A DNA stretch of 64,000 nt from Marsupella aquatica (taxonomy: Eukaryota; Plantae; Marchantiophyta): NCBI GenBank assembly GCA_973895155.1, contig OZ316891.1, positions 21,961,168 through 22,025,167 of the forward strand. Direction: 5' to 3'. Each line of letters starts with the position of its first letter. The first letter of the stretch is position 1. The notes beneath the pieces were generated by a model that saw only the letters and a program-made list of their open reading frames with translations, was not told the origin of the DNA and searched no databases. This document shows, one piece after another, positions 1-54,800 of this stretch. The position numbers and the translations under genes were made by a program.

Positions 1-2739
1 TTGGATCATCCGTGTGGGTTTGGCGTGAGGATTCACCCACCCACCCCGAGCGCCGACCGTCTCAAATCGAGGTGCCATGTGCAGAAGTATTGCCGCCTCT
101 TCTGGGGTCATCATATTTCTTAGATCTTCATGTAATGACTCCTCGTCCGCGCCCTTTGCCTTTTCCTTTCCCTTGACCTTCTCAACCACGAAATCAGTAT
201 CCTTTTCACCATACACCCATTTTGGCTTCATCTGGTTGGGCTTGAACACTTCATCCCAGCTGACGTTCTCTTCGCGAGAAATTCCCGCAAAGATAACTTC
301 TTCTATTCCTCCCTTCCAACATGAGTCGTGAGGGTGAGGTTGATCATCTCGGTAATAACTCCCATACTCAATGTGAATAGTCAGAGTTTTTGAATGTCCT
401 AATTTACAAAGAGCGCTTAGGACATTCAGTACAAGGTAACCCGGATGGACAGTTATCATCACAACAATGGTGGGATTCCGTGGTAGCTCTACTATGTATT
501 GGAAGAGTACCAAAATCTCTGCTTCGGTCCACTCCTTCTGTTGAAGTCGGCTGAAATCAACAATTGCAAGAGGGCATGTTGGAGATTGTTCTTCCAACAA
601 CTCCGGATCGACTGTCTTCATTAGGTTGTTACTAAAAAATCTGACCCACGGTTGGGTCCGAGAACTTGTCCCCCCGCCAAACTTCTGACAGTAAATATCA
701 TCTAGACGCATCACCAATGTCATTGGCAATATCTCACTCTCCTTTGTATGATTAGACTTCAATAAATTTGTCAACCATACTTCACCAGCCGCTCTTCGGC
801 ACCTGTTCAACTCCGACTTGGCACCTAACAATGGGAGGACCTCAATTACTTTAACCCAATCAATATCTGCTGGGAAGTTTTTCGGATCCTTCTTGAAGTA
901 GTAATCTCCAATAAGAGACTTCAGTTTGATCAATATCTTCACCTCCTTTGCAAAGTCCTCCATTGCTGGAACATCTGACTTATTTGTCGGATCCTTCTTC
1001 AATAAAACCTGACCTGACTTCACCTTGTTCAAAATTCTGGTCAAATCTCTACTTGATATTTCACCATCAAAACAACGAAACATTGCGACCGTTATACCCT
1101 TTTCGGACCTTTTGTTTCCCTGTGTACCAGCTCCATGAGGAAGATGTCCATCAATCCACATCTGGCACACTAACCGCCAGAGCTCGAAAAGATCATTCTC
1201 GGCAAAGAGCAACCAATATACATTTTTCAAGTCTTTCCTCCCCATGGTCATCCTTGCCAATGCCAAATAATCCTATAGTCAAAATTAGGGGAAAATAAGT
1301 TATCTACAATCAATGAGATTTGACAACAAACTATCACTTGCTTGTTGGACAGAGACCATCTCCATCCAAGTCATAACTAAAAGTAAAAGGAAGAGAAATC
1401 TCTGGAATGGACGATGACACTCTTGGACAGAGATCATCTCCATCCAAGTCATAACCAAAAGTAAAAGGAAGAGAAATCTCTGGAATGGACGATGACACTC
1501 TTGGACAGAGATCATCTCCATCCAAGTCATAACCAAAAGTAGAAGGAAGAGAAATCTCTGGAATGGACGATCACACTCTTGGACAGAGACCATCTCCATC
1601 CAAGTCATAACCAAAAGTAGAAGGAAGAGAAATCTCTAGAATGGATGATCACACTCTTGGACAGAGACCATCTCCATCCAAGTCATAACCAGAAATATAT
1701 TGAACTAAAATCAATGTAACGGACGGTCACACTCTTGGACAGAGACCATCTCTGTCCAAACAAGAAAAGTGTTTCTCACCTGAAATTTTTTATTTTCTTG
1801 GGCGTTTGACTTGTTGTCCCCGTGCTTTGGCTTTCTTGGTCCTCTGCATTCAAGGAATTGTTTCCTTGCATGAACAATTGTATCTTTGAAGCACGATTGA
1901 AACACCATCGTCAAATTGATGGCATTTGATCTCATTGAGTGCTCAACCAATATAGCCGATGGTGTAAGGTCTGACAATAATCTAGACTTCCTGTATTTTA
2001 ACTTTTTTGCCAACACTGTGAGCTTGGCATCAGTTTTGGCCCATTCGAGAACCCACTTGGCCGCCCTAGCCGAATGTTGCCCACTGATGGCAAAGAAACC
2101 AATCTCGCCTTTCTTCACTCTTGCAAGAAAGTCTTTGCGGTCGTTCTCCGTGCTGTCAAAATGGAGCAACTTTCTAAGCTTCAGACTATAAGGAAGCAGG
2201 TCCGCGACGTGAGGTTCATGTCCGGGGTTTTTGACCATGGATTCGGCTATGTGCTTCACATGGGTACTACTGAGCATCCTGTAACATAATCTTGCAGGTG
2301 CAGGCACAATTTTCTCCACTGGAATAGAAAACAGTTCATTTATCCCAAAAGTATAGTACTGCTCTATTCTCTGGAGAACATCATTTCCTTCTAAGACCTT
2401 CTTCTCCTCAGGGGCATCAAGTTTGTCTCCCTCATCTTCTGGGAGCATCTGTACGTCCGCAGGGGTTGACCGCAAAAGAGACTTGTCAGTTTTCTGTTTC
2501 TTCGCTACTGGCTTCTTCTCGGGTTCCTTCGGCAATGTCTCAATTTTCTCGCGACCCTTCCTCTCTCTTAGTCTTCGCTTCCCTACCACTTGTTTGGTGC
2601 TTGTCCCAGCCGTTGTTCCTGCAGTCCCTGTTGTTGTCTCCTGAGATATTTTTCTAGGTTTGGGAACTTCTTTGGGAACTTCTTTGCTCGGGGGGTTCAC
2701 CTTATGAAATTGTTGTATACCATGTGCGAACGCCCCTAT
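1..2739 (-). CDS. ParB/Srx(DndB-like) domain + degenerate beta-class amino-DNA-methyltransferase-like fusion protein; 3' end runs off the window
   Basis: Exon ~2739/2700-1780 (RMLSSTHVKHIAESM...FFAISGQHSARAA...HSMRSN). Phase-0 intron 1779-1273 (CAG|GTGAGA...TATAG|GAT). Then a 424-codon exon 1272-1 with no stop (PLAIVDFSR, GGIEEVIFAG, WVNPHAKPTRMIQ), absent from the ORF track because it has no stop in the window. Start uncertain: the nearest ATG (2723) is 1 nt out of frame. Confidence 0.7.
1345..1759. repeat. 78-bp-period array with 6 copies of the palindromic motif, inside the intron of the ParB-MTase-like gene
   Basis: TTGGACAGAGA(C/T)CATCTC(CA/TG)TCCAA starts at 1345, 1423, 1501, 1579, 1657 and 1735. 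Confidence 0.95.
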
Positions 2740-2930
2740 TTAATCACTCTCTCAAAAAGGAATAGGAAGCTCAAAAAACCCATCAATCATTTATTGACAC
2801 GTGGCAAGCAATGAATCATGTGATGACAAGTGGCACTTTTTGAATTGTTACCCCCTTACTTACTTCCTCGCTACTTCTAAGTACTTCCCTAAAATGAATA
2901 AAACGCCCCTTACTTCGTTCGCACATGATG

Positions 2931-4442
2931 TCAACATTTGTGGAAGTGACCCCCCCAAGCTTCTTTGTTAACAACTACTGGAAGCTCGTTCACCACTACT
3001 GGTGCAACATTTGTAGGCTTGGGTAATGATTCTACCCACTTTTTTGCATTATCCATCGCAAACTCCTCTGCAAATGCAATTTGCTTGTCAAGGCAAACAC
3101 CTGATTCCGAAGATAGGAATCCTGCCTTGTCAAGCAAATTATTTAAAATCCATGTCACCGGAAATGTATAATTCCCTTGGTGTTTATGGATATTCAGCTT
3201 CACATATTGGAACCCATACATTATGTCAAGTGGAAGAATCCCCTTCACTCCAGCAATCACCTTTTGAGTTGAATACGACTTAGGGAAAAAGCCCATTGCC
3301 ATCACGCCAAGTTCTCCAGCACTAGACCACTCAACATTGAACTCTGAAGAATACGCCTTTGATGGTAGATGTAGCTTAACCCATCGTATCCTTTCATGGA
3401 GCTCAAGAATGATGGAAACAAACCCTCTTCCTTCAATTCCAATGAAGACTACAGGTCCGAGTACAAGAGTCTCTTGATCTTCTGTTCTGACCTTTATGCA
3501 CAAAATGGGATCCCATCTCTCTGACGTGCTAAGGAAATCAAAATCAACTCTAGAGAACTCAAGGCCCCAACAAAAATCTGGTTTTCTCTGCTCCAACAAG
3601 ACTCCCTCGGAGCAATCTGATTCTGAAATTGCTGGTTTCAATCCATTTAGATCGCTCCCTGCAATAGTCCCATCCATGCATATTAGTTTGGAAAATCATA
3701 ATTTGTAATCGACAAAGATGAGGTTCTCTCACAGTTTGGACAGAGATGATCCCTATCCAATTGGACAGGGATGATCTCTATCCTCTACTTGGATAGGGAT
3801 GATCTCTGTCCAATTCGTAACAAAGATAATCTTTGTTCGATCAAAGGATTCTGACAATCTTTATTAGGAATTGGACAGGGATCATCTCTATCCTCTACTT
3901 GGATAGGGATGATCTCTATCCTCTACTTGGATAGAGATGATCTATGTCCAATTCCTAATAAAGATCATCTTTGTTCGATCAGAGGATACTGACGATCTTT
4001 ATTAGGAATTGGACAGGGATCATCTCTATCCTCTACTTGGATAGGGATCATCTTTATCCAATTCCAAATAAAGATCCTCAGCATCCTCTGATAGAACAGT
4101 TTCGATCCTCTGGTTGGACATCCTCTATCGTCATTTTGGAAATAGATGATCCCTATCCAATTGGACAAGGATGATCTCTGTCCTCAGTTTGGACAGAGAT
4201 CATCTCTATCCAATTCCTAATAAATATCACTATCTTCTACTTGGACTCTACTTGGACAGGGATGATCTCTGTCCATTTGCACAAATAGTCAACTTGTTAC
4301 CGAGATACTTACTTGGATTGAGCAATTGGAAGGCTCTGGAATCCTCGAGGGCCGTGTCTACCACATCCTCAATGGAGGAGAGGTCTATCTCCTCTGTTGG
4401 CTCAACGACCAAAGACACATGAATAGGTCTAGATGGATCCAT
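2931..4442 (-). CDS. Two-exon gene of unknown function (~285 aa), transposon cargo
   Basis: Exon 1 4442-4313 (MDPSRPIHV...LLNP). Phase-1 intron 4312-3659 (A|GTAAGT...TTGCAG|GG). Exon 2 3658-2931 is in frame with the 248-aa ORF. The phases match exactly. Confidence 0.6.
3736..4276. repeat. Array of ~12 palindromic motif copies inside the intron of the unknown gene
   Basis: TTGGAYAGRGATSATCTCTRTCC in groups of 2-3 at 25-28-bp spacing, separated by ~57-bp self-complementary linkers (TTCCTAATAAAGATC...GATCTTTATTAGGAA). Confidence 0.9.
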
Positions 4443-5340
4443 CTTGTGACACGTGGTCGTATGGACACGTGGAGGATCACAGAGCGTTAGATCTAGGGCA
4501 ATTAACGTGGCGGCTAGGGCAGAAACTCTAGTGTGAAGGCGGAGGTGGAGTGGGGCCTAGGGAGACTGGAAGCGAATGAGGCGGAGGAGCGGAGGAGCGA
4601 AGGCGCAGGAGCGAAGGAGCGGAGGCGCAGGAGCAGAGGAGCGAAGAAGAGGAGGAGGGAAGAAGAATGAGGCCCAAGTGGGACCTCTTGCCTCCTTTAC
4701 CCCCCCCCACACCAAGGTGAGGCAAGGCCGACTCAACACGTGGGAGGCCGAGCTACAAACCCTAAACGCAATGCTGCGTAAATTGTGCCGCCCGACTTGG
4801 TTGTGTGGCGTGGGTGACCTAATCCACTCGACCCTAAACTCCGCCGCTGCTTAAGGCTGATCACGCATCGCCTTATCCGTAAGAGCGATCTTGAATGGTG
4901 ATACTTGGGCTGCTCCGGCTGGTCCTCATTTGGTATTTTTATGTCTAGATTTTCATTCAGTGTCTCAACCAGGTCCGTTCATTACGGAGCCCCATTGAGC
5001 CACTCTTGTTTTCTAGACAGAACATCTAGTTTTAATTTCTTCCACACCCCTGAAGCATTTAGTTTACCAGCTTACTGAGAACTACCCCTTCAACAAAGTA
5101 TTTTATTACTTGGTTTGACAACATAAACTAAGTGAGTTTTGTGTTCAAGAATCATTTCCATTACAGGTAACTTTCAACTTAATTATAGAATATTCCATTG
5201 GTATCAAATTTAGGAATTGTATATCTAAGTTACTTAAGGTTGGGGTATCCAGCCCAACTCACGATTGGGATCATCTCAATCGAACCTTTCTTTGGTCAAA
5301 CATTAAATTAGTGTGTAGAGGTTAATTGTCCGTACAAGGG

Positions 5341-6335
5341 TCTGTCCACCGTTTGGATAGGGATGATCTCTGTGCACCGTTTGGATGAGGATGATCCCTG
5401 TCCACCGTTTGGATGGGGATGATCTCTGTCCACCGTTTGGATGGGGATGATCCCTGTCCGGCTTTTGGATAGAGATGATCCCTGTCCACCATTTGGATAG
5501 AGATGATCCCTGTCCACCATTTGGATAGGGATGATCCCTGTCCGCCATTTGGATAGTGATGATCCCTGTCTACCATTTGGATAGGGATGATCCCTGTCCG
5601 CCATTTGGATAGAGATCATCCCTGTCCACCGTTTGGATAGCGATGATCCCTGTCCCCCGTTTGGATAGAGATGATCCCTGTCCACCATTTGGATGGGGAT
5701 GATCCCTGTCCGCCATTTGGATAGAGATCATCCCTGTCCACCGTTTGGATGGGGATGATCCTGTCCGGCTTTTGGATAGAGATGATCCCTGTCCACCATT
5801 TGGATGGGGATGATCCCTGTCCGCCATTGGATAGGGATGATCCCTGTCTGCCATTTGGATAGGGATGATCTTTGTCCGCCGTTTGAGGTATTTGCTTTAT
5901 GGGACCCCAATATGAAAGGTTTTACTTTCAGATAGGACCGCTGAGTGATCCTAAGTGATCCGGACCTTGAATCATCCATGTCTATTGTTTGGACAGTGAT
6001 AGACCCTATCCGCCATTTGGACAGGGATCAGCTGTGTCTGCCATTTGGACAATGACAGACCCTATCCACCGTTCTGATAGGGATCATCCCTGTCCGGATT
6101 TTGGATAGGGATGATCCCTGTCCACCATTTACAGGGATCATCTATGTCCATTGTTTGGACAGTGATAGAACCTATCTGTCGTCTAGACAAGGATCATCCC
6201 TACCGAACGTCTAAATAGGGATCAGGGATCAGGGATCTTAGGGCTAGATAAGGATTGTTTAGGGACCTATTATTTTGCTTGATGGGGATGATCCCTATTT
6301 GCGCACTGTCCTTGGATGGGGTTCACACCTATCTG
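5341..6335. repeat. 28-bp tandem array (~19 regular + ~10 degenerate copies) of the palindromic motif, upstream of or within a 5' intron of the transposase
   Basis: Unit CCRTTTGGATAGGGATGATCCCTGTCCR at 5349-5880, with degenerate copies at 5989-6335. Candidate donor CAG|GTAACT at 5167 and acceptor TGTGCAG at 6387. Confidence 0.93.
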
Positions 6336-6404
6336 CTTCCTAGTTGGGACCATTGTTAACTAATACCTTACATTTCAAATTGTGCAGGTGAACACGTTGT
6401 AGGA

Positions 6405-9400
6405 ATGACCGGAATATTTTTGAGAGGAGACAATGTGATATTGACAATTGGTGGTTACGATGTTGCAAGCGGGACAGTTCAAAAAATCAACCCGCAAGAT
6501 AGTGTTCAAAAGATATTGTTGAGAGAGAATCGAATGGGCGTTCTCATTGAGAAAGTTTTTGACCGAACCACAAAACTACCATTTCCAATGCCTTGGGCAG
6601 AAAACCTTTTTGATGCCATTGATTCTTGCATTATTTGGGATTTGTCTTGCGCATATCTATCAACGATAACAAATTCTCAAAAACGCATTAGTGTAGGTAG
6701 TTGTTCAAATCGACCGGAGAGTAATTTGGAAAAAAATCCAATTGTAGAGGAGGACTCATCGACCACTCTGAGGCAAGGGGATGAGGTTGAAATGTTCATC
6801 TTTGGGTGTTGTGTAGCCCTTGGAGTTGTTTTCAATACAAATCTAATGGAAAGATGTCACAACATTTTACTTGGTGAATCACGGATCAGTGTGAGGGTCA
6901 CTGATGTCATTCATGGGAGTAGGGTTTTACCTTACAAACACAGCGGGGCTGAAACAATTGACGAAGCAAAAGACTCATGGGTTCTCTGGGATGTGGCAGA
7001 TGTCCGAAGTAGAAAGAGTTTCTCAAAGAAGGATGCGGGCGATGATATCAACATAGAGCGGAGTTTTGTTGCGGAGTCTCCCTCAGCTGAAATTTCTAAA
7101 ACTAATTGTGACTATTTCCAACGGTCAAATTGGATGTCAGAGTTGGTCGAACTATACATCGGTTCAGATCGAACCAATAGGGTTGCCACGGGGACCATCA
7201 CTGTGCCTCAAGAAACGGCGGTGGTTGACGATGAAATTCTTGGTGAGGACCATGTAGGGATTGCTGTGAAAGATGTGGTGGAATCACAATACTTTCCCAA
7301 TTTCCATAGGGGAGTAATTACTTTGGTTCGGTGGCGGATTGATTCAACAAAACTACTTGCAAACGGGAAATTTTTGTCGGACATTTTGGTTGAAGGTTCA
7401 GAGAGGATGGAGAGGGTGGATAGGGATGATCTCTATCCAAATGTAAATGATAGGGGAATGCCGCGCACAAGGCCATACAATTTCAACAAGAGGACTCATG
7501 TAGATCCGATTGAAAAGAAGAGAAGGTTGTTGGAAACCAAAGCAGTTTCAAAAACAACGGAAGCTTCGATTGATGAAATTAAAAGAGAGAATTATTGCAA
7601 GCAGAAATGTTGTCTGACTATGCCAAGAGAAGACATAGAAGATATCCGGATAGAATTTCACGGGATGTCTAGCGAGTCAAAAACATCACACATTTTCAAC
7701 CTCTTCCACTACAGAGAAGATGATGTTCGTGATAAGGGGCACCATGTTCTCAAGGGTATGGTCGTATGTAGACATGCATTTGCAATCATCCATGGCTTTA
7801 GCCACACGAAATATTATGATTACAAAAGGAGATATGTGGAGGGTTGCAAAATTGGGTTCCATGGAAACACGGGCTCCATGAAAACAAGGTCAAATACCTT
7901 GCATGCACGAGCTCTATTGGAGGATTTTTTGACTCGAAATGCAGAGCCCATGCCTCATATACCTTATGCTGGGGCTCATGGGACACCCTCCATTGAGTAT
8001 CGTCTTCCAGCATGTTACAAGAAGTTGGAGATTTTGGAAGATGTGAGAACAAAGATGAAGGAAGAGGGGCTTCCTCCAGTTACAGAGAATACTCTGTACA
8101 AGATTTGGAGCAAATCATTCGCAAACTTCAGTTTCCATAAAGATGGTGCATTTGCCAAGTGTACTCTTTGTTGTGAATACAAAGATAGTTTGATGCGAGA
8201 AAGAAGGAACAAAGAGCGTGCTGAAATTGAAGAAAAACGAGCGCAACATCTTCGTGAGCAGATGTCACGTAGATATGTTTACTATGCTCATCGAGTGATG
8301 GCTAAGCAACATCCAAGGAAATATCTTTGCATCATTCACGACAAGATGGATCAAGCAAAGACATGGATTCCAAAAATGGTCAGTACTCCTAAATCGCTTT
8401 CGGGTCATGGGATGCCACTACCTATTGCTCTCACAGGGATGTTGACCCACGGAAGGGATCCAAGAGTCTATGCACACTTTAGTGTCACTGGCCTTTGGCC
8501 AGGAGATGCTGATTTCACGGTGACATCCTTGGCTAAGTGTCTTCGAGACCTTGAAGAGTACAATGGAGACAAGACAGGTGACATGTTGGATGGCCTTTAT
8601 TTGGAACCTCATAGACCTTTCTTTCAAGCCCTTCTTGACTTTGATGCATTTTTTAAGGGATATTTGGAACCAAAGAGTATTCCAATGAATAGGTATATTG
8701 GTTCTGAAGATGCAGCCGAGAGTCAGACGGAGACGGTCTCCACCCAACATGGTGAGGATCAAGGAGGGGACATGCATGGGGAACAAGGCAGTCCATCTTT
8801 CAAGCCCTTGCCAAGGCACCTAACACTACAAATGGATAACTCAGCAAAGGATAACAAAAACCAGACTGTCATGCATTTTGTAGTGAGCTTGTGAGTAGAG
8901 GAGTATTTGAAACTGTTCAAATGTCTTTTCTAATGGTTGGTCATACACACGAAGATGTTGATGCACTCTTTTCGAAGGTATCATATCAAGTTCAGCACAA
9001 GGAAGTTGCAACTCTCCTTGCTCTTATGGCAGAGGTTTGGGAATGTGAGAGCATTCATCCAGTTCCCAGATTGATACAAGAAGTTGCATCTTACAAAGAA
9101 TATCTTCAAACTTTCAAAGTTAAAGATATTCAAGGTCACTCAAAACCCGTATCATTTCTTTTCTCTATGAGAGATAATGTACCAATATTTCAGTATAAGT
9201 CCCATGTAAAGCAAGCTTGGGCTCCAGTTGGAGGAAGGTGCATTTGGGCAATAGATCTGACAAAAAATTCTCTTCTTTTACCTAGTGGAGAGCCCTTAGC
9301 TAAATTCATTGGAGAGATACACAAAAAATCTGAAGAGATTATCCCATTTCTTAACAAGTACCTTGATTTTTTGAGAAAGAGTTGCACTGATGAGACATCT

Positions 9401-11230
9401 ATAGCATATAAGGAAAGATTTCCTCTTGTGAAATATTGGGAGAGAATTGTGGAGTTGTTGACAAATGGGCTTGCACTAGAAGGGGAGGGAAGTACTCAAT
9501 TTCCCTTGAAAAATGGATTTTGGCCTAAGACTAACCACGGCACTGGTTACAAGATCAACCAACCGGAACAAAGTGGTCCTCCAAGTGAAGATGAGGAGAA
9601 TGCGGAGATGACGGCTCTTCAAAATGAGGTCTTGGAAGAGATGGAAGATCAAGCAGCACCATTTGTTGGATCTCGAGCTGAGAGAGAACAAGGACGGTGG
9701 ATTCCCCTACAGGATATTCGTGAAGGGAACTTTGTATTTCTTCGACCTGAGGATGACTGGGAGAATAAAAATGGTGGAGGTCATTTTTGGTTGGTGAGAG
9801 CTTTGGGTTCGGTGGACCCTAAGCATGAAGTCCCAACTACATCTCCAACAAACCCTCCTATGCCTCAACAATATGCTCCAATGTTTCCAGTCGAATGGTG
9901 GAGGCCTAAACACTCTAAACTTGATGTGACTGAAAGTGCACGGTATCTAAACTGCTTCATGTCCACTAAGACATGGGCCCTGGGCCCTTAGCTTAACTAA
10001 TATGGGACCCCCCGTGCGAACAACTCAAGGGGTTTTTAAATCTTTTTTTTGAATAATAGTTATAATCGCTTATAATGTAACAACCCTTTGTTTTATTGGG
10101 TTCCATGTTATAATGAACCAAGGTGATCTAAAAAATAGGGTTCGAGTAGTTGTATGTAAGGGTAAAGCATATAGGGCCGCCACACGTCAATACTCATTCA
10201 TCCACATGTCATTACATCCTTGGTTTGGGGTGTGCAAACACATTTGAATTTTTGGGGGATAGGGGAAATTTTGCCTTTAGGGGGTCTCGTGTACCATTTA
10301 TGGATGACCAAAATGGTCTGCCGTCGATCTCTTTGATGCTCTATATCAAACGGTGTAGGGGTATATATGGCCTTGTAGGGCCCCCAAAGAAGGAGGAGGT
10401 CAAGTAGACACCGTTGTTCAATGCGTGTTGCGTCAGATGGGGATTCTATGATGCCACAAGTGATAGAGAGAGAGTCTCAATCCAGAGTCACTTATGTACC
10501 TCGGTGTATATTTATCACTTCTAGTGATCAAAGAATTGGTTTAAATGTAATAAGTTTTCCAATGCTTTAGACTCAAAGGATAACTTTCCTCTAAATGATG
10601 ATGAATATGCTCAACAAACTATGGGACAAACTTAAGTGCAATGTGGACTTACGGTTTTCATAGATGACAGCGTAGGATGTTTACAACTTAATTTGGATAC
10701 TTGTATGAGTTTGTTTGACTCTTAAATGCCTTGACTCCTACCTTCTTGCGAGGAAGTGTGTACATAAAGAATATGTTGTTCCTATTTTTGCTTTTGATAA
10801 TGTGAAATGTTTATTCCAATCTGTTTGACTTAGAATCTCTTTGATAGAATTTTTATAACACCTGAAGAGCATATTTAATGTCATTTTGATGAAGATTATA
10901 ATAGCCTAAAGGGCTTTCTTAATGACCCAAAAGTAATTTATTAATACTAATAAGAGCTTTTTAAAAGGGCAAAAAATAGTACTGAAGGGGTTTGGAAGGG
11001 AGGGGCGTTCACAGGCCGGTTCCATTAATATACACGGAGTAAGGGCCCAGGGGACATGGGAACGAGATCCAGGGTTTGGTGAGAACGCTCAACATTGGCA
11101 ATATGCAAATTCTGCAATGTATGGTTTTAAATCTGGCATGAAAGAAGAAAACATGGCGGGCAGAGGTTTGAAGATTCCTCGAAATGTTCTACAAACTGTC
11201 CAAAGTTATCTCCAAAGGATGGACAAGTAG
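6405..11230 (+). pseudogene. Sola-like/DUF7869-type DDD transposase, disrupted by a 1-nt frameshift (~8874) and a MITE insertion (9978-11052)
   Basis: Motifs AKCTLC..H, IIHDKMDQ, LQMDNSAKDNKN and FLMVGHTHEDVD. Adding one G at 8874 gives ...NQTVMAFCSELVSRGVF. Removing the insertion restores ...MSTKTWERDPGFGENAQHW...YLQRMDK* with the stop at 11228-11230. Confidence 0.8.
9978..11052. mobile_element. Non-autonomous TIR element (CCCTG family), 1075 bp
   Basis: TIR CCCTGGGCCCTTA / TAAGGGCCCAGGG. Perfect 8-bp TSD GACATGGG at 9970-9977 and 11053-11060. Excision restores the host ORF. Confidence 0.93.
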
Positions 11231-11519
11231 ACTTAGTTGTTACTTGCGAAGCTATAATAATTAAATTAATTTAGATAGTTACTTACCTAGTTTTTATGTA
11301 AATAGTCGACACTCATTCAAACATACTAACTTACGTACTAGTTATTTACTATTCTAATAGTTTTAATGTGAGACCATGTCATTGAGTGTTAGTTATACTA
11401 TCTCCTCATTTTCTAAACTTTTGATCATTATGAATATGAATGTTTGCTTTTTTGCATAATTAAAAATATTTTTCTATTCATTCCTTTCTTTTAAATGATT
11501 ATAATAAGATTTGGTAGGA

Positions 11520-11845
11520 AAATATACACTTTTTAGGCCAAATGTACACTTTGTTGCACTCAAAGTTACACTTTCTAGACCAACTACACTTAAATGTACA
11601 CTTTTTAAGCCAAATGTATGTTTCTTTCACTCAAATGTACACTTTCTAGGCCAAATGTACTAAAATGTACACTTTTAGAGCCAAATATACCTATTTTGAT
11701 GTTCAAATATACACTTTTTATTGCCCAAATGTACACTCTTTAGGCCAATTGTACACTTTTCTATCCCCAAATGTACACTTTTCATTGGCCAAATGTACAC
11801 TTTTCCTCGCCCAAAAGTACACTTTTCATTGCCCAAATGTACATA
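11520..11845. repeat. Tandem array of a ~20-bp unit CCAAATGTACACTTTT (~15 copies), probable subterminal repeat
   Basis: Repeated AAATGTACACTTT core with palindromic TGTACA, directly after the transposase 3' region. Confidence 0.85.
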
Positions 11846-12677
11846 AATCAAATAATAATACACTTTTAATGAATAGGCTGATTTTACCCAACCTGTTCTG
11901 TCCCAGCTGCAGGAGTTGGTCGCCTAGTAAGGGTGGGCCTGCCCTCTCCCACTCTGGCTCCCGCTGTTCGGAATCCCCGTGTAAATCTCTTAACTTCCAA
12001 GTATTTCCAGTCCGTTCCAATCAGTTCCGTTGCCTCCTAATCGTTGCTTTAAAGGTAAGGCAGGAGCAAAACACACTCATTAGGGCGTCTCAAATATGAG
12101 ATTTTGTGGGCACGGTCAGCAGCCGTAACATGTAAGTTACGGGTTAAGAGTGAGAAAGTTATGGACTGCCATTTTTGGCAGTCGATAACTTTGTTACGGA
12201 CGGCGACGGTAACCCGACACCGTAGAGCACAGGTCCGTAACGGCTTGACGGTCCCGTCTGAAGAACAGGGTCGGGCTGAACTGGGAATCTGCAGGGATGG
12301 GAGAGCATTTTCTGGGAGACTCACGGATTGCAGAGTGACGAGCATTGCACGAGGATGACAAGAATTGCAGACGACGATGAGGCAACGACGAGGGCGACGA
12401 GGCGACGACGAGCATTGCACGAGAGGACATCACACCTTTGTGCGTGGACAAGACGAGGCTGAACGTGCTAGGAGGTCCAACAAGGGGACGACAACTTTGC
12501 AGCTTATTGTCACAAACCTCCACTCAGGCAGGAACCAGAGCAGCTTGGTCCCATTTCCGCAATGCGTTGCCACATAGGAATCCACTTGAATTAAGGGCAA
12601 GGTCTTGGGTCTGTCTCAACTCCCTCGTCGAGAGCTAACCCCTAATTTCTGCCAGGTGTGTTGTTTTTCCAGGAGCC

Positions 12678-13449: not shown

Positions 13450-14932
13450 ATGCCTCGAATTTCAGACCGTCAACACTCACTATGTTTTGTGCGGAGGACT
13501 CTTGAATTCAACATTGCTTTAGAATCTTCTGGTAGTGAGCAGGACTCCGATGACTCCCTATCATCGTTGTCCTCTGGTTTTGAGATGGACATGACTATCT
13601 CAGACAGTGATACTGATGGAGCTTTCGAGGACTCAGATTCGGACTATGACTTTGACTTGTTTGAGCTAGAGGGTCATCCTAGTGAATTGCTAGCTCGAGT
13701 TGTATTTTGTTATGCACCACACTCGATACTTTGTTGGGCGTGATGTGGTGCAGAAGTCCAAGGATTTTGTCCGTAATTACTTTGATGGGCTTGGCCTTGT
13801 ATTCAGACAGATGGTGGCATGGAGAAGAGTACCTTCTTTTACTTGGTGGAATTAGTTGAGAACGATCCTATCTTTGTGAACAAGTCATGGCATGATCAAG
13901 CACCAATTGAATGGCAATTGGCTGTCACTTTAGATCATTTTGGCCAGAACGGAAATGGGGCATGTCTAAATCACATGATACCAACATGGGGGATCAGCAA
14001 TGGATCATTGGTGAACTTCACCAAGCAATGTTTGGTTGCACTAGAGGCAGCATTGTGCCAATACCTACAATGGCCAAAAGCTGTTGAACGTCATGAAATC
14101 CAGCAGGAGTTTGCAAAATTGGGGTTTCCAGACTGTATTGGTTTGATTGATGGATCTACTTTGCCTCTTGCACAGCGTCCAGCAATTGCTGGTGAATGTT
14201 ATTTTGATAGGAAATCAAGATATTCAATTAATGCTCAGGTGGTATGTGATCATCGAAGGAAAATCTTGTTCCTATTCACTGGTAAGGCTTGAAGTTGTTG
14301 CTGCATTTGTGAATGATTGTATTTGAAGCTTTTCATACTGTCATACATTCCTAATTGAATGTGCTTCTTTTGGTGTTGTCTCGTATCCAGGGATGCCTGG
14401 AACGTGCTCTGATTTGGTGTGCTTGAAGAAGTCACCCTTGTGGTTGTGGGTGAACAATGGAACCGGATTTACAAATGGGCAGTACTTGTTAGGAGATTCT
14501 GGTTATGTAGCCCTCCCGCACATGGCTGCTGCATACAAGAGAGCAGACACCAGTGTACACAAAGAGGACTTCAACTCTTGTGTTGCAAAGTGTAGGGTCA
14601 CCAATGAGCACTGCATTGGTGTGCTCAAATCCCGTTGGTACTCTTTGAGGGAGCTGCGAACTCAATTGAACTTGAAGAAGGACAATGTGTTTATGATCCG
14701 CTTAATTGGGGTATGTGCAAAGCTACACAACTTTGTTCAAGCACAACATGATGAATGGACCGACTTAGACTCCCCTATGGAGATAGATCGGGAGATTCCA
14801 GGGCTGGGCGAAGATCATCCATTGCATGGGCCCCAATTGGCCGGTGTAATGCTGCAAGCTAGAGTGATGAGCCATGCTTTGGCTTTCCATAGGGCACCAG
14901 GTGGAGTCCTCCATAGAGACGTTAATAGATGA
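13450..14932 (+). pseudogene. Harbinger-type DDE transposase (frameshifted N-terminus)
   Basis: GFPDCIGLIDGS, YFDRKSRYSINAQVVCD, intron 14282-14390 (G|GTAAGG...CAG|GG), MPGTCSD, YLLGDSGY, RVTNEHCIGVLKSRW. Frame breaks around 13720-13818. Confidence 0.88.
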
Positions 14933-16726: not shown

Positions 16727-18330
16727 TCACTGGGCCGGAGGCTGATCAACATCATCAATGACCTTCATCAAGCCTAGAATCTGCTCTTCCAATTTATCTG
16801 AGCAAAACAGCTGTAGTAACAATTGAGTCTTATGTTCAGCTCTAATCATTGACATTTGATGTTCTCTCTCCACCACAGCTCTTTTCACTAATTCTGCGTC
16901 AACTCGAAGGCTATGTCTCCTAGCAATACGCTCCCTCCGTTCTGCTTCTACAGCTGCTTCCATCCGAGCTTCTCGCCTATCTCTCAATTCTGCCTCCTTC
17001 CAGTTTCTTTTGGACTCAACCATTGATCTCATGTAATTAGCTTTTTGACCCAACTTCTCAGAATAGACAGCAGCAGAGTGTGAAGGAGCAGCATTGGTAG
17101 GACTTGGGCAAGCATCAGGTGCAGGAAAATTGCGTGAAGCAGCAGCAGGATGTCCATCATGGACAGATGGAGCAGGAATACTATGAGGAGGCAGTTCTGG
17201 GCCATCAGCTGTAGTCCATGCAAAGCTATCTGTTGTGGCTTGACTAAGGTCACCCTCATAGTTTTCATTCACAAGATCAGTGTAGGTCAGATATTCATTC
17301 CAGTTCAGCTCGGTTGCCTCCACCTCTCCATCGCTCTCTGCAAACCATAATTAGAAATTAGAAATTGGTTTAAACAAAAGAACTACAAAATATGTCCACT
17401 CAGAAGCAATGTACATAACCAACAACAGCTCATACCACTTAGAATTTCCGTTGCAGTGTATTGAGCCTGACTTTCTTCATCAAGGTTCACTGGGTGGCCA
17501 TCTGGTACTGCCTCGGTTGGTTGCACAGAAACATCAATACAATCAGGGCCCATTCCAAAAGATCCAATTGCAGCAGGTGCTACGTTTGGTCGATCACCAT
17601 ACAAGGCATGCATCCTCTAAAAATGGGGGCACGCCTTGTTCAACTTGTCCTCAATGGACATTCCTGCAGCAATCTCAGCTTCGTTGAGCCCTACCCCACT
17701 GTCTGTCTTCAATGCAAGCGCCTCTTTGAATCGCTTAACATATCTCTCGTATCTCTTCCCAAGATTATCCCCTATAGTAATCGCCATAGGAAACCCGTGT
17801 GCTTGCAGAACTACAAGCATCTGCTTGAAAGTAGTCTTCTTGGTAGGGCATTTCCCGTTGATCCTGGTACGATTAATGCTTCCATGGCTGTGCAAAATTG
17901 TTAGGATTTTCCAGCCAATCAAGGATCTTGCTATAATCTTCAACCCTCAATCAAACCTTGTCTCCAGGGAGCAGATGCGTGCTCCTTGCTAGAGCTGGGG
18001 TAGATTGAACTGGACACGAGGATTGAAGGGCCTTTGATTTGCTCGCACATTTGCCATCTCGCGATTGACAGGAACAACAACTTTGATTGAAACAGGAATT
18101 TCAGCAGCTTCCTGCACAGAGCACCTAGCATCCTCTCCAGCACCCTCAGACAAAGCGTCGACAATGGGCCCAGAAATGATCGATGGGGAAACTTTGATTG
18201 AGACCAAAATTTCAGCAGCTTGCTGCACAAAGCGCCCAACTCCCTGAGACAAAGTTGCGAGAATTGGCCCGGAAACAATCCCTCCTAGAGCAATCGGCCC
18301 GATCTGTGGCGGACACTCCCCCATTTTTCT
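16727..18330 (-). pseudogene. Harbinger companion (Myb/SANT-like DNA-binding) gene, fragmented
   Basis: Fragments WLENPNNF, LGKRYERYVKRFKEAL..TDSGVGLNEAE..SIEDKLNKACPHF*RMHALYGDRPNVAP and a coiled-coil C-terminus (16727-17323). It is convergent to the transposase, as is usual for the second Harbinger gene. Stops and frameshifts are present. Confidence 0.7.
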
Positions 18331-24900: not shown

Positions 24901-25013
24901 GACGCTCAATGAATAGCGCCTTAATTACTAATTCTCTGCTTGTACAACAAACGAGTTGATCTGCAGGTTCGCAAATTGTTTGGTTCTGATTCGTTTCTTG
25001 TTGTTGTTCTCAG

Positions 25014-26017
25014 AGGTGAATTCGAATGATACAGTTCCATGGGGAGTGTACGTGCTCGGCGAGCTTGTGAAAACACTAAACACCTTGACGCGACGGAGCG
25101 ATGGCACGATCAACAGAAAGCTTGCCGACCTCATTGAGTTCAAGGTCCCCGCTTCGGAGAAGCCAAAAAACGGCGTCTCAAGTAAAGACGTCGTCATCGA
25201 CGACGTGACAAACGTGTGGGTGCGAATCTACTTGCCCAGCGAGGAGTCGAATAAGAGGCGTCTACCAGTGCTTGTCTACTATCATGGAGGTGGCTTCGGA
25301 GTCCTTTGCGCCAACGAGGCAAACATCGACAACCTGTGCAGGACGATGGCAAAAACCTTCAACATGGTCGTCGTTTCTGTCAATTATCGGAGAGCACCGG
25401 AGCATCGATTTCCCACAGCGTACCACGATTCGTTCCAGGCGCTGGAGTGGCTCCAGTCCACTGCATCTCGTGCACACCTCCCTCCTACAGCAGACATTGC
25501 GCAGTGCTTCTTGGCTGGAGAGAGCGCGGGCGCCAACATTGCGCATTTCACGGCTTGCCGCGCTGCAGAAAACGAGAGGGAATTGATCCCACTGCGAATC
25601 CGTGGCGTGGTTATGCTGCAGCCCTTCTTTGGATCCGAGCGGCGCACGGCGGCTGAAAACGCTCTCGCCAATGTGCCTCTGATTTCCACTGATGCCACGG
25701 ACTGGCACTGGAAAGCTTTTCTGCCCGAAGGAGCGGACAGAGATCATCCAGCTTGCAACGTCTTCGGCCCTAATGCTCGTGACATAGCAGAGCTCCCCCT
25801 TCCACCTATTTTCCTGGTGACGGGCACTCTGGACCTGCTGATCGACCATCATCTCAATTACGCGTCTCGCATGCTGGAGATGGGCAAGTCCATCAAAGTG
25901 GAAAACTACGTTGGTGGTGTTCATGGGTTTTATTTCTTTGCGCCTGTTGGCACGAAGATATCTTTGGCGTGCCTCGCCGATGTCAAGAATTTCATCCAAT
26001 TGAATTCAAGATCATGA
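25014..26017 (+). CDS. Carboxylesterase (CXE, HSL/GID1-like alpha/beta hydrolase); main exon, start probably in an upstream exon
   Basis: RRSDGTINR, YYHGGGF, VSVNYRRAPEHRFP, GESAG, DWHWKAFLPEGADRDHPACN, DLL, VHGF (Ser-Asp-His triad intact). Acceptor TTCTCAG at 25013. Confidence 0.92.
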
Positions 26018-34251: not shown

Positions 34252-35732
34252 ATGTGTAAAAACCTGAAGGAGAAGGGGAAGCGAATGGTCAAGGACGAGG
34301 AGGAAATTGATGAGGCGGCGGAGCCAATGAAAGGTAAGAAGAAGCGAAAGAGAAAAGAGGAGATGGAGGCTGAGGCACTGCCGCTGGCAGTGCGCACATC
34401 AGTGCAGACGTTGAAGAGAGCCCTGTATATTGGAGCACATGTCAGTGCAGCTGGAGGTAGGTTCTTTCTTTCATAGATCATCAAGTACATTCCGATTCCT
34501 CCCTTTCTTCCCATGCATATGGAATCTGCTAGACTCTTGAACGGCACAATGAAGTTCAATGCTGGATAATTTGTTAGTTGATTTTCTCGACCCTAAACCC
34601 TAGACCTCCACTCCCTCATCCTTTCTCAGTACTTGTGTCTGACACAAACTGAAATCTATTGACGTGAACAGGAGTCCATAATTCAATCAACAATTCTGTT
34701 CATATTGGTGGAAACGCGTTCGCCTTGTTTGTCAAGTCACAAAAGAAGTGGATAAGCCCTCCACTCGCTGAGGAGGCTCGTGATCAATTCCTCGCTCTTA
34801 GCAAGAAGCACAGCTACGATTGCTCGAAGCATATTGTACCTCATGGCTCTTACTTGGTGAATCTCGCACAGAAGGACCCTGATAAGGCCGAGCAAGCGTA
34901 CAACTGCTTCTTGGACGATTTACAACGCTGCGAGGCTCTTGGAATAAACCTTTACAACTTTCATCCTGGTAACACTGGGCCACATAGGCGAGAGGAAGCA
35001 ATAGGTCGTATAGCAGCGAACCTCAACAGAGCTCATAAGGCCACCAAAAGCGTCGTCACATTGCTTGAGAACATGGCGGGAGGTGGCAACTTGATAGGAT
35101 CTACTTTTGAGGATCTTCGGCATATTATCGCTCTTGTCGATGACAAGTCCAGAGTCGGGGTATGCATCGATACATGTCATTCCTTCGCTGCAGGTTATGA
35201 TCTAAGGACTCCGGAAGCGTTCGAGAAAACCATCGACAGTTTTTCGGAAATAGTAGGAATGAAATACCTCAAAGCGCTACACATAAACGACAGCAAAGCG
35301 CCACTGTCGTCGCATCGAGATCTTCATGCCAATATCGGGACTGGATTCTTAGGCTTGCGCGCTTTCCACAATGTTGTCAATTTCGAGCCTTTTCAGCATT
35401 TACCAATGGTTCTCGAAACTCCCGTACAAAAGAAAGGCGAAAACGGGAAAGTAGTGGACGATACGGGGGTGTGGGCGGCTGAAATCAAGTTACTTGAAAG
35501 CCTGATTGGTGCGGATACTGAGAGTGAGGATTTCAAAAGTGAAGAGCAACGGCTACAGGATTTGGGCGCCGAGGAAAGGAAGAAATTCCAGCAGCAGGTA
35601 GATAAAAAGGTGCAGAAGACAATTGATGCCATATTCAAAAGGGCCAGTCCTAAGAAACATAAGAAGAAGGCGCAGGACGAACCCCGGTCGGATGTAGAGT
35701 CCGATGGAGAGCGTTCAGAATTTGCCCAGTGA
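34252..35732 (+). CDS. APN1: AP endonuclease family 2 (endonuclease IV / Apn1), ascomycete-like, ~421 aa
   Basis: Exon 34252-34456 (...LYIGAHVSAAG), intron 34457-34671, exon 34672-35732 (GVHNS...GNAFALF, HGSYLVNL, YNFHPG, LLENMAG, CIDTCHSFAAGYD, LHINDSK, DLHANIGTG, LETP). The canonical EndoIV metal-binding motifs appear intact. Confidence 0.95.
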
Positions 35733-51800: not shown

Positions 51801-54800
51801 TAAGAGTTTCAAATCCAGAACTCATCCTAAAATTGAGGTATAACTTCTAATATGGTAAGTCAAGGAACGAGGTGGTTTCGTTGTCTTTAATTTTCCAGAG
51901 ATTGTAACACAGGTCTAGAAACTCTTGCTCACAACCGTTGCTTGATCTATGGCACATCTACGGCATATGGTTTTGACGTGTTGGGTCGAATAATTGAACC
52001 TTCTGTACCTTAGCTTGATATTTCTGATGCATTTTCTCCATATCCTCTTGATTAGACTTCCGAATCTCCTCAACCTTCCGATGCAACTCAGCAATGTTGC
52101 CATTACACTATTGAAACAAGTTAAACAAACGGATAAAATGCCTTTAAACCAGGTTCATATTCTATAAACAAGAAAATTCGCATCCGAACAAAACCAACCG
52201 TCTCATTCCCCGTCCGGTGCTCCTCTTGCATTTTGTGAATCTCCTCAGCATGAATGGTAGCAATCTTTGTTTTCTCTTGCTCATAGCCCTGCAGAAGTTT
52301 ATCTATCTGCAGGGTCGAATGGGGTAAACGAGTAAGATTGAGAAATATGTGTAAGCAGATCGCATCCGACCTGCAGATCTACAGTCTACGTCAGGATTTC
52401 AGAGAATGTGCCTATGAAAATCTTACCGTTTCGCTCGCGTTCTGAAGTTCCACTTCCTTTTTGTGAATTTCATCGGAGTGAATGGAAACGATTCTTTCTT
52501 TGTCTTGCTCATGACCCTCCCGAAGTTTTCTGATCTGCAATTGAAAGCAAAATCGGAAAATCTGTTAATAGTATAGCCAGTTATGCAGATCGCATAAATC
52601 TAAGCTAGCCAGTGCCTACTTCTTAATCAGGACTTCGGTCCGGACGGAGCATGATGGTACTGACCATCTCCTTCACGATCTGAAGGTCCTCTTCCATTTT
52701 GCGAACTTCATCGGAGTGAATAGAAACGATCTTCGTTTTCTCTTGCTCTTGCTCTTGAAGTTTTCTAATCTGCAGAGCGGACGGAAGACCAGTCAAGAGT
52801 TTTGTGATCTATTAATGGTTCGTCGGTCGAAGCAATTCCTACTGGCTCAACCATGACTTCGGAGAATATTTAAACATTAACTACGTACCGTCTTATTCGC
52901 TCTATGAAGCTCCTCGTGCTGTTTGTCAGTTTCTTCAGAGTGAACGGAAACGATCTTCATTGTCTCTTTTTCGTGACCTTCTCGAAGGTGGCTGATCTGT
53001 AGCGAGGACAGGGAATTTAGCTAATCAAAACTTTTCGGAAATGTGAATAATCTGTACTTCAAGGAATTGAACATTCTTGGACAGGTGACAGACACCACAT
53101 ATTACCTTGCACTCGCAATCATCTTGCAAACTTAGCCACCGTTGGTCGAATTTTCCAAGCGCCGTCGCCATGCCTTCGTCAGAAGCTTTTCTAGCCGCCT
53201 TCAGGGCATCTTCTCCCTGCGAATTATATTTACATTCAGTAAAGGAGAAATCAGGAACATAGTCTGGAGACTTGTCTTCCGATGATTTCAGAAAGCTAAT
53301 AATTAATTGTGGTTCCAGTCTAATATGTGTTGGACTGGATGAATGGTCCTTACTATATCCTTTCAATCGGACAAAACCACAAATGTGCATGGATCTGGGG
53401 TTCTCTTGAGAAGGTGCTGGTCTCTTGGAATAACTAGCAAATATAAGCCATCATAGAATGTTGCACCTTTAGCCTTTCCTTTGCAATGCCTTCCTCAATT
53501 TCCATTTCAGATTTCCTCCTCAGGGCCGCTATTTCCTGTGCGAATGGGTACTCAAGGGAAACGCGTGGCATGAGTTATCAAATTATTTTACCTACGGTCC
53601 ACAAAACACTTTCAGTGATGAATTGGAGTACATTGCGATTTAGGCCAAGAATTTGGCTATCTTCGATTCTTGACCAACCTGATTATAACGCTGTGAAACG
53701 TCCTCAAGATGCTGGGTCGATTCTTCCTGCTTGGATTCTAATTGCACGTTAAACTTGATCTCCAGACTCTTCGCCGTATTTTCCGATGCAGTTAATAGCT
53801 CTTGCACCTGGACAGAAAATAATCATCAGATCCTGTATACAAATGAGCAGAGTTTTGCTCTTAGAGTGCGCGCTCCAATTGTTTCAAAGGAGGCTGAAGT
53901 GAAGTCGTCTTACCATGGCGTTTTCTCCTCTGAGATTCGCTTCATTCTGGGACATGCACGAGATGAGTTGAGTTTTCTCAGTACACTCCCGAGAGAGTCG
54001 TTGAAGTTCATCCTGAAGAGTAGAAAACTTCAACTCCTCCTTTCCGATACAATCGACCAACCTCTCATTCTCTTTCACCGCTTCTTGTAACCGACGTCTG
54101 ATAAGCTCCATATCAAGCTGATATTCTATAAGATGATTGGCCGATTGTTTCTGCTTGGATTCTAACTGAAGTTTAAACTCAATCTCCAGACTCTTCGCTG
54201 CAGCTTCGGCTGCAGTTAATTGCAGTTGCACCTGGACAGGATAATAATCATCAGATCCTGTATACAGATAATCAGAGTTTTGCTCATGCGATGCGCGCTC
54301 CATTTGTCTGAAAGGAGATGGAAGTGAACTTGTCTTACCGTGTCGTTTTCTCTTCTGAGATTCGCTTCATTCTGGGACGTGCACGAGATGAGTTTACTTT
54401 TCTCCGTACACTCCTGAGAGAGTCTTTTCATTTCATCCTGAAGACTAGAAATCGTCGACTCTTCCTTTTCGATAATATCGACCAACCTCTCATTCTCTTT
54501 CACGGCTTCTTGCAACTGACCTCGGATAGCCTCCATATCAAGCTGATACTCTACAAGATGTTTGGCCGATTCTTTCTGCTTGGATTCTAATTGCAGGTCA
54601 AACTGAATCTCCAGACTCTTCGCTGCAGCTTCCGCTGCAATAAATTGCTCTTGCACCTGGGCAGAAAAATAATCATCAGATCCTGTATTCAGATGATCAG
54701 AGTTTTGATCTTACAGTGCGCGCTCCAATTGTCTGAAACGGATTGAAGTGAAGTACGTTGTCTTACCATGACGTTTTCTCTTCTGAGATTCGCTTCATTC

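Follow-up and report, generated by a model that had tools for sequence, protein, structure and literature searches.

The window examined here, a stretch of 64,000 nucleotides of Marsupella aquatica contig OZ316891.1, carries at its left end a DNA transposon that is present in many copies and measures 11.9 kb or more. An accessory gene in this element is transcribed away from a transposase with a DUF7869 domain (E 1e-25), the pair lying head-to-head within one element (Table 1). The part of the accessory gene that falls in the window comprises two exons and one intron, and is accompanied by arrays of a 23-bp palindrome.

Table 1. Features of the transposon and its accessory gene (positions in the window; a dot marks features without an assigned strand).
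Feature	Position	Strand	Remarks
Accessory gene, exon 2	1..1272	-	About 190-residue helical domain, then most of a predicted beta-class amino-MTase fold
NPHAKP	16..33	-	Aligned to M.RsrI HPTQKP; K in 24/24 sequences covering it
HIEYGSY strand	355..375	-	Matching P0004 strand (291-297) forms the centre of the homodimer interface in the prediction
DFSR (residues 239-242)	547..558	-	At the motif IV position, after strand LAIVD; register from model topology, not sequence profiles
Accessory gene, intron	1273..1779	-	507 nt, GT-AG, phase 0; 78-bp tandem array inside, carrying 6 palindromes
Accessory gene, exon 1, 3' part	1780..2686	-	Charged linker, then conserved domain at about 1804-2385 (SGQHS motif) of ParB-like appearance
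273-bp insertion	2687..2959	.	Inverted ends; 8-bp duplication (2679-2686, 2960-2967); breaks exon 1 in this copy
Accessory gene, exon 1, likely 5' part	2968..3677	-	ATG at 3677; register continues once the insertion is taken out; no family match
12 palindrome copies	3737..4275	.	Just upstream of the accessory gene
23 palindrome copies	5354..6206	.	Repeat period of 28 bp; directly 5' of the transposase
Transposase with DUF7869	6360..9977	+	Two frames; 1-bp frameshift near 8872; in-frame palindrome at 7417-7439
Nested 1075-bp insertion	9978..11052	.	14-bp inverted ends; 8-bp duplication (9970-9977, 11053-11060); absent from other copies
Right end (inferred) with subterminal 22-bp repeats	11500..11884	.	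End at 11880, then ATTT; depth fall; X3 contig start at 11855

The presence of many copies was evident in four public runs, from which 47-1540 contigs with many variants matched positions 1-2800; three of the runs gave 258-1540 variant contigs each over these 2.8 kb. Summed contig depth in run X3, which is not equivalent to copy number, was 86-1912 over 1-2800, 224-2314 over 6250-11927 and 16-69 beyond, and depth in runs X1 and X2 fell in the same way beyond the element. A low-depth X3 contig starting at 11855 places the end of the shared sequence at 11884 if the words were 31 long, which fits an element end at 11880 followed by ATTT. The element probably belongs to Sola1, whose transposases we take the DN..NKN and GHTH.D.D motifs of the window transposase to resemble. 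The ATTT next to the inferred right end, the end that lies in the window, fits the 4-bp AWWT target duplication reported for Sola1 (PMC3845634).

The copy in the window is broken, carrying two insertions and a frameshift. The frameshift was lacking in about half of the depth, and transposase coding, as judged by eye, resumes beyond the 1075-bp insertion and extends to about 11230. The two insertions are different from each other and non-coding, and neither was found again in the window; by the length of their 8-bp duplications both are presumably hAT-like. About 1 kb at 4280-5340, separating the two large palindrome arrays, holds a G+A-rich stretch and short frames; the divergent promoters or a small first exon would be expected here, and an acceptor-like AG occurs near 6388 in the transposase frame.

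The palindrome, TGGAYAGRGAT-S-ATCYCTRTCCA, was found in 42 copies within 1346-7439 when one window copy was used as the search key with up to 5 mismatches; the same search gave none in the 52-kb flank (11881-64000) and none in 20 of 20 shuffles. Thirty-five copies occupy the stretch that separates the divergent 5' ends, another six are in the intron and a single one is in the transposase frame, the last being duplicated in another copy of the element. GATC stands at the centre of 37 of the 42 copies, which are the GATC-containing repeats of the initial annotation and have about 29-30 GATC per kb vs. 4.3 in the flank. Palindrome positions 5 and 19 vary C/T and G/A within CAG/CTG, the pattern expected of deamination after CHG methylation, which suggests methylation of the arrays by the host.

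Exon 2 of the accessory gene had been proposed in the initial annotation as a hidden, stop-free exon of 424 codons, and our analysis confirmed it as a genuine exon under coding constraint. Translation gave 424 codons without a stop, a length with a chance expectation of about 7e-13 at this base composition, and the 3' end of the frame leaves the window at its left edge. The exon was absent from the open reading frame track most likely because the frame, which has an in-frame ATG at codon 8, meets no stop inside the window. Its acceptor AG lies at 1274-1273 and the donor GT at 1779-1778, in phase 0. Two Calypogeia fissa proteins cross this junction: P0026 aligned through residues 1-153 to 2238-1780 and through residues 154-308 to 1272-808 (junction 1780|1272), and P0002 spans the same junction. 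The intron end of a metagenome locus (L005) falls at the same codon. Thirteen of 25 variants in exon 2 were synonymous vs. 21% expected (p=7e-4), the 25 being those inside the exon among 40 listed of 224 differences. No RNA data set was among those listed as containing the sequence. Atlas features (0.94-0.95, 136-168 shared) suggested a TraG/VirB4 ATPase for exon 2, and this candidate was rejected, as the fold and profile searches led elsewhere.

Exon 1 likely comprises about 539 codons, since the frames at 2968-3677 and 1780-2686 share register across the empty insertion site and contigs of runs X2 and X3 with loose ends at 2674 are joined to position 2968.

A phmmer search over 1.84 billion representatives detected 76 relatives at E <= 0.001, and word-indexed searches were positive for 1 of 3991, 2 of 3443 and 3 of 7990 candidates. 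The named relatives are from the liverworts Calypogeia fissa and Riccia sorocarpa, with no algal names among them, and the motif blocks of exon 2 were preserved among relatives at 23-64% identity. Two relatives of 1009-1219 aa, P0082 and P0087, have the full order of an N-terminal domain, a helical domain, an MTase-like domain, a disordered tail and a small C-terminal domain. The small domain, which ends in EYGSF, is conserved in the last 80 residues of P0002, P0003, P0004, P0008, P0019, P0082, P0087, and P0088; it sits after a long disordered linker, was confidently modelled in P0004 (830-870) and has no family match. Relatives were found without long flanks, and linkage of the accessory gene to a transposase is known from this window alone. 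A protein scan of metagenomes for relatives with genomic context gave 0 true cases among 55 candidates, and a motif scan of metagenomes gave 12 loci, one of them a true relative (1.8 kb). In a tblastn search of phages with P0019, the matches (E 0.006 at best) covered only the region around motif I in adenine methylases.

The third part of the accessory protein is predicted to adopt a permuted Rossmann fold, with the catalytic half ahead of the SAM-binding half. The fold was modelled for the relative P0004, which is 48% identical to exon 2, and not for the window protein itself; a 48-row alignment was used and most blocks of residues 1-480 were above pLDDT 90. Ranks 1-31 among the Foldseek matches listed for this model were beta-class MTases. 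Comparison by VIA gave Z 18.2 with CcrM (rmsd 3.9, 221 aligned, model residues 193-486), 16.1 with RsrI, 15.9 with MboIIA, 15.7 with PvuII and 15.0 with rotifer N4CMT. The family profile matched M.RsrI (E 6e-8) through its C-terminal half, and a profile-profile alignment against 10 bacterial beta-MTases scored 62.0 vs. a shuffle maximum of 20.6, the signal again coming from the C-terminal half. The half with motif IV did not rise above shuffles in alignments to 10-16 bacterial beta-MTases (12/100 equalled it); the bacterial set consisted of 10, then 16, of 30 loci passing motif filters. The model, Foldseek, VIA and the family profile support the beta-class amino-MTase fold proposed in the initial annotation. 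N6_N4_Mtase (PF01555) matched 8 of 16 relatives scanned, one of them above the curated cut-off. On its own, exon 2 matched no MTase in Pfam or in the sequences of the PDB, and the MTase signal is contributed by relatives reaching past the window edge.

The four motifs on which that proposal had been built were all present in the exon 2 translation and in the order given. The assignment of DFSR to motif IV, in place of DPPY, was also supported, with a register that comes from the topology of the P0004 model, since the N-terminal half fails sequence alignment. In this model D231 ends the strand that comes after the first strand and ahead of a helix-strand unit, and in beta-class MTases DPPY follows the strand at that topological place. 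The position reads D-F-x-R family-wide, with D in 37, F in 34, and R or K in 34 of the 40 sequences that cover it. The motif [DNS]PP[YFW] occurred nowhere in any of 89 proteins, a set that includes near-duplicate cluster members and fragments, and 0 of the 89 were homologues retaining DPPY or SPPY. From the sequences compared, D-F-x-R is a fixed, family-wide replacement rather than decay in one copy.

A motif-I-like sequence had been predicted to the left of position 1, and relatives carry one there. Past the window edge they have NPxxKP, about ten residues, and then GDTVLDFFSGGQVL, with the D of DFFSGG about 15 residues beyond the last window codon. The motif reads DFFSGGQ, one residue shorter than DFFAGSG of RsrI, and its glycines were conserved in 14/16 and 16/16 sequences. 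Near motif II a D (11/13) and an E (13/13) were conserved, the motif II acid being displaced by one in profile alignments. The prolines and the aromatic residue of motif IV are needed for amine activation. SAM binding may survive in the accessory protein, and the amine-activating prolines and the stacking aromatic appear to be lost. A change of SPPY to APPA abolished the activity of rotifer N4CMT (PMC8885841).

A homodimer was predicted for P0004 residues 195-482 with an ipSAE of 0.40 vs. 0.00 for the best of 3 controls; the runs had at least 59% of contacts in common and pLDDT of at least 60. Among one-chain pairs from microbes 21 of 30 passed the mark used, as did 17 of 29 eukaryotic pairs, and no single chain did so (0 of 23). 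The P0004 score may reflect likeness to solved beta-class dimers. The conserved HxE[FY]G[ST]Y strand takes part in the predicted interface.

The N-terminal domain can be called ParB-like as a lead for further work. Its HH alignment to 119 ParB sequences, two of which were verified as PF02195, was colinear over 111 columns, and 7 of 100 shuffles scored as high; the alignment places FFAISGQHSARAAK on YKIIAGERRYRAAK. SGQHS, present in 4/4 sequences, aligned to AGERR of ParB, and the arginine patch is absent. A GxRR arginine patch marks CTP-binding ParB. The domain had no match in Pfam, PHROG, NCBIfam, PADLOC or PDB sequences, tblastn of plasmids and phages was blank, and the model reached a pLDDT of 44 and gave no Foldseek match. 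Matches to PDB profiles were spurious. Atlas placed the domain with clusters of unnamed fungal proteins and DUF3723 at 0.93-0.94, which were not accepted as its identity, and a literature search found no report of DUF3723 together with ParB.

The accessory gene is a transposon helper and not an instance of host co-option. In the reading that we favour, to which we give even chances, its product is a pseudo-MTase, likely inactive as an enzyme and likely binding DNA as a dimer at the 23-bp palindromes of the element itself. This reading draws on the exon and its splice junction, the fusion to the N-terminal domain, the head-to-head gene order, the D-F-x-R motif and the confinement of the palindromes to the element, together with the fold and homodimer, which are predicted. 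Precedents are Sola1-1_Ec32, Plavaka PAG3 with its inverted-repeat arrays and the inactive MTases of DIRS1 (PMC12477816; bioRxiv 10.1101/2025.02.11.637652; PMC4738411). The dimer, aided by the ParB-like domain, would load onto the 35 palindromes between the divergent 5' ends, coat them and keep host 5mC silencing off both promoters; alternatively, the coating could gather the element for transposition. SAM may persist as a structural ligand. Conservation of the first catalytic D, of the K before motif I (24/24) and of both motif I glycines counts against an inactive binder, as an active enzyme would match these too.

It is unlikely, in our view, that the protein is an active amino-MTase that uses a non-canonical D-F-x-R site to write 6mA or 4mC at the palindrome centre GAT-S-ATC and marks the element as its own. 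All relatives have other residues in place of both motif IV prolines and the stacking aromatic, motif I falls one residue short and the motif II acid is displaced by one position in profile alignments. In favour of this reading, several motif residues are well kept (D in 37/40, K in 24/24, the two glycines of motif I, and the D in 11/13 and E in 13/13 near motif II), as are the full fold and the predicted dimer, and GATC is central in 37 of 42 palindromes. An equivalent proposal exists for Sola1-1_Ec32 (PMC12477816). The wider form of the idea, that liverwort transposons possess a self-marking system of bacterial origin in which a dimeric D-F-x-R MTase writes 6mA or 4mC on its own operator-like palindromes, is rather doubtful; if true, it would be an anti-silencing epigenetic mark made by a transposon itself in a land plant.

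The palindromes may be read by the ParB-like or the helical domain alone, with the MTase fold as a dimerising or SAM-sensing scaffold, which we consider rather unlikely. Conserved residues concentrate in the predicted dimer strand and the N-terminal domain is colinear with ParB motifs; however, the ParB match is below significance, GQHS replaces GERR of the arginine patch, and the conserved D-F-x-R falls outside the listed dimer interface. Red algal Plavaka elements offer a precedent, as palindrome arrays are described there beside ParB-like genes without an MTase (bioRxiv 10.1101/2025.02.11.637652). In a further reading, which we consider improbable, the palindromes serve as sites for the transposase or constitute an independent minisatellite, and the accessory protein acts on host chromatin proteins, RNA or general DNA. 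The tie between protein and repeat is an inference, and the in-frame transposase palindrome, duplicated in another copy, is what a self-spreading repeat would give, but the arrays are internal, the end at 11880 bears a different 22-bp repeat and 52 kb of flank hold no palindrome. It is highly improbable that this is a domesticated host gene of the MpDN4MT1 or N4CMT kind, placed beside the transposase by chance, given the many variant contigs on 2.8 kb (258-1540 in each of three runs), a depth far above that of the flank, the insertion in exon 1 of this copy and the lack of SPPY, even though such genes exist in Marchantia and rotifers (10.1101/2021.02.12.428880; PMC8885841).

The initial annotation had pointed to MTases co-opted by Marchantia and rotifers, a parallel that our results do not bear out: those proteins keep (T)SPPY and are active, whereas the MTase-like domain here is the third part of a larger fusion carried by a multi-copy transposon. 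The accessory protein shares with rotifer N4CMT (Z 15.0) and Marchantia MpDN4MT1a/b the state of a eukaryotic protein with a bacterial beta-class fold. N4CMT and MpDN4MT1 are described as active host enzymes with (T)SPPY, and the accessory protein is transposon-borne and has no SPPY; N4CMT has a chromodomain, and MpDN4MT1, which is set apart here by its description, is presented without extra domains (PMC8885841; 10.1101/2021.02.12.428880). Like CcrM, M.RsrI, M.PvuII, M.MboIIA, and M.BceJIV, the accessory protein combines the predicted fold, the permuted order with motif I last, the HP..KP and motif I region and a predicted homodimer. It differs from beta-class enzymes in D-F-x-R for [DNS]PP[YF], a motif I one residue short, 8-15% identity and large N-terminal additions. 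The likeness to DIRS1 and METTL14 is that of a catalytically disrupted N6A-MTase fold kept under selection, borne by a transposon in the case of DIRS1; the DIRS1 domain is reported as PCIF1-derived (group 2) and part of a retroelement polyprotein, and METTL14 as a subunit of a host RNA methylase (PMC4738411).

Transposon accessory genes with ParB and MTase domains are known, being in print for algae (Sola1-1_Ec32 and Plavaka). Sola1-1_Ec32 of Ectocarpus has an accessory gene of 1104 aa on the opposite strand with ParB-like and N4C/N6A MTase domains, and production of 4mC or 6mA is predicted for it (PMC12477816). As described, it has in common with our element the build of a giant DNA transposon, an accessory gene opposite the transposase, an N-terminal domain joined to an amino-MTase fold, a comparable protein length (1104 aa vs. 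1009-1219 aa for P0082 and P0087), a probable 4-bp target, and frequent nested insertions and broken transposases (PMC12477816). Our element differs from that description, to which the comparison is limited, in its land-plant lineage, the family-wide replacement of the catalytic motif and other terminal letters (PMC12477816). For PAG2 and PAG3 of red algal Plavaka, PF01555 MTase and ParB-like domains are described with inverted-repeat tandem arrays beside the ParB gene, and self-binding is proposed (bioRxiv 10.1101/2025.02.11.637652). These too are giant DNA transposons with MTase and ParB-like domains and inverted-repeat arrays; they belong to EnSpm and carry the MTase in a fusion with SET, and ParB in one with a 2OG oxygenase, and here both domains lie in one protein whose MTase is without motif IV (bioRxiv 10.1101/2025.02.11.637652).

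What is new is the land-plant lineage and the conserved, replaced active site. Literature searches listed no paper that describes the accessory family in land plants; Iyer 2011, which treats green algal cases, and the Bostrychia supplements, which may bear on the motif state in algae, lie outside this scope. The family is a land-plant example in which a candidate site is defined (the 23-bp palindrome, present 42 times) and relatives are known from two liverworts, Calypogeia fissa and Riccia sorocarpa, which makes binding, SAM use and anti-silencing directly testable. Either outcome would be informative, as it would establish a pseudo-MTase as an operator-binding protein or an amino-MTase that works without the PP-aromatic motif. 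N6_N4_Mtase matches in bryophyte genomes are not necessarily 4mC writers like MpDN4MT1.

Several other features were detected in the window. A DDE_Tnp_4 transposase in two frames (13786-14932, plus strand) and a tail-to-tail partner frame (16727-17350, minus strand) form a Harbinger-like element. A carboxylesterase at 24932-26017 on the plus strand (Abhydrolase_3, E 3e-56) looks like a plant CXE and gives the strongest indication of a plant host within the window. The frame of 354 codons at 34668-35732 on the plus strand matched AP_endonuc_2 (E 5e-56) and resembles fungal Apn1; the window is otherwise plant-like, and gene transfer or contamination is possible. A 425-bp unit is triplicated in tandem at 53705-54987, with coiled-coil-like frames on the minus strand.
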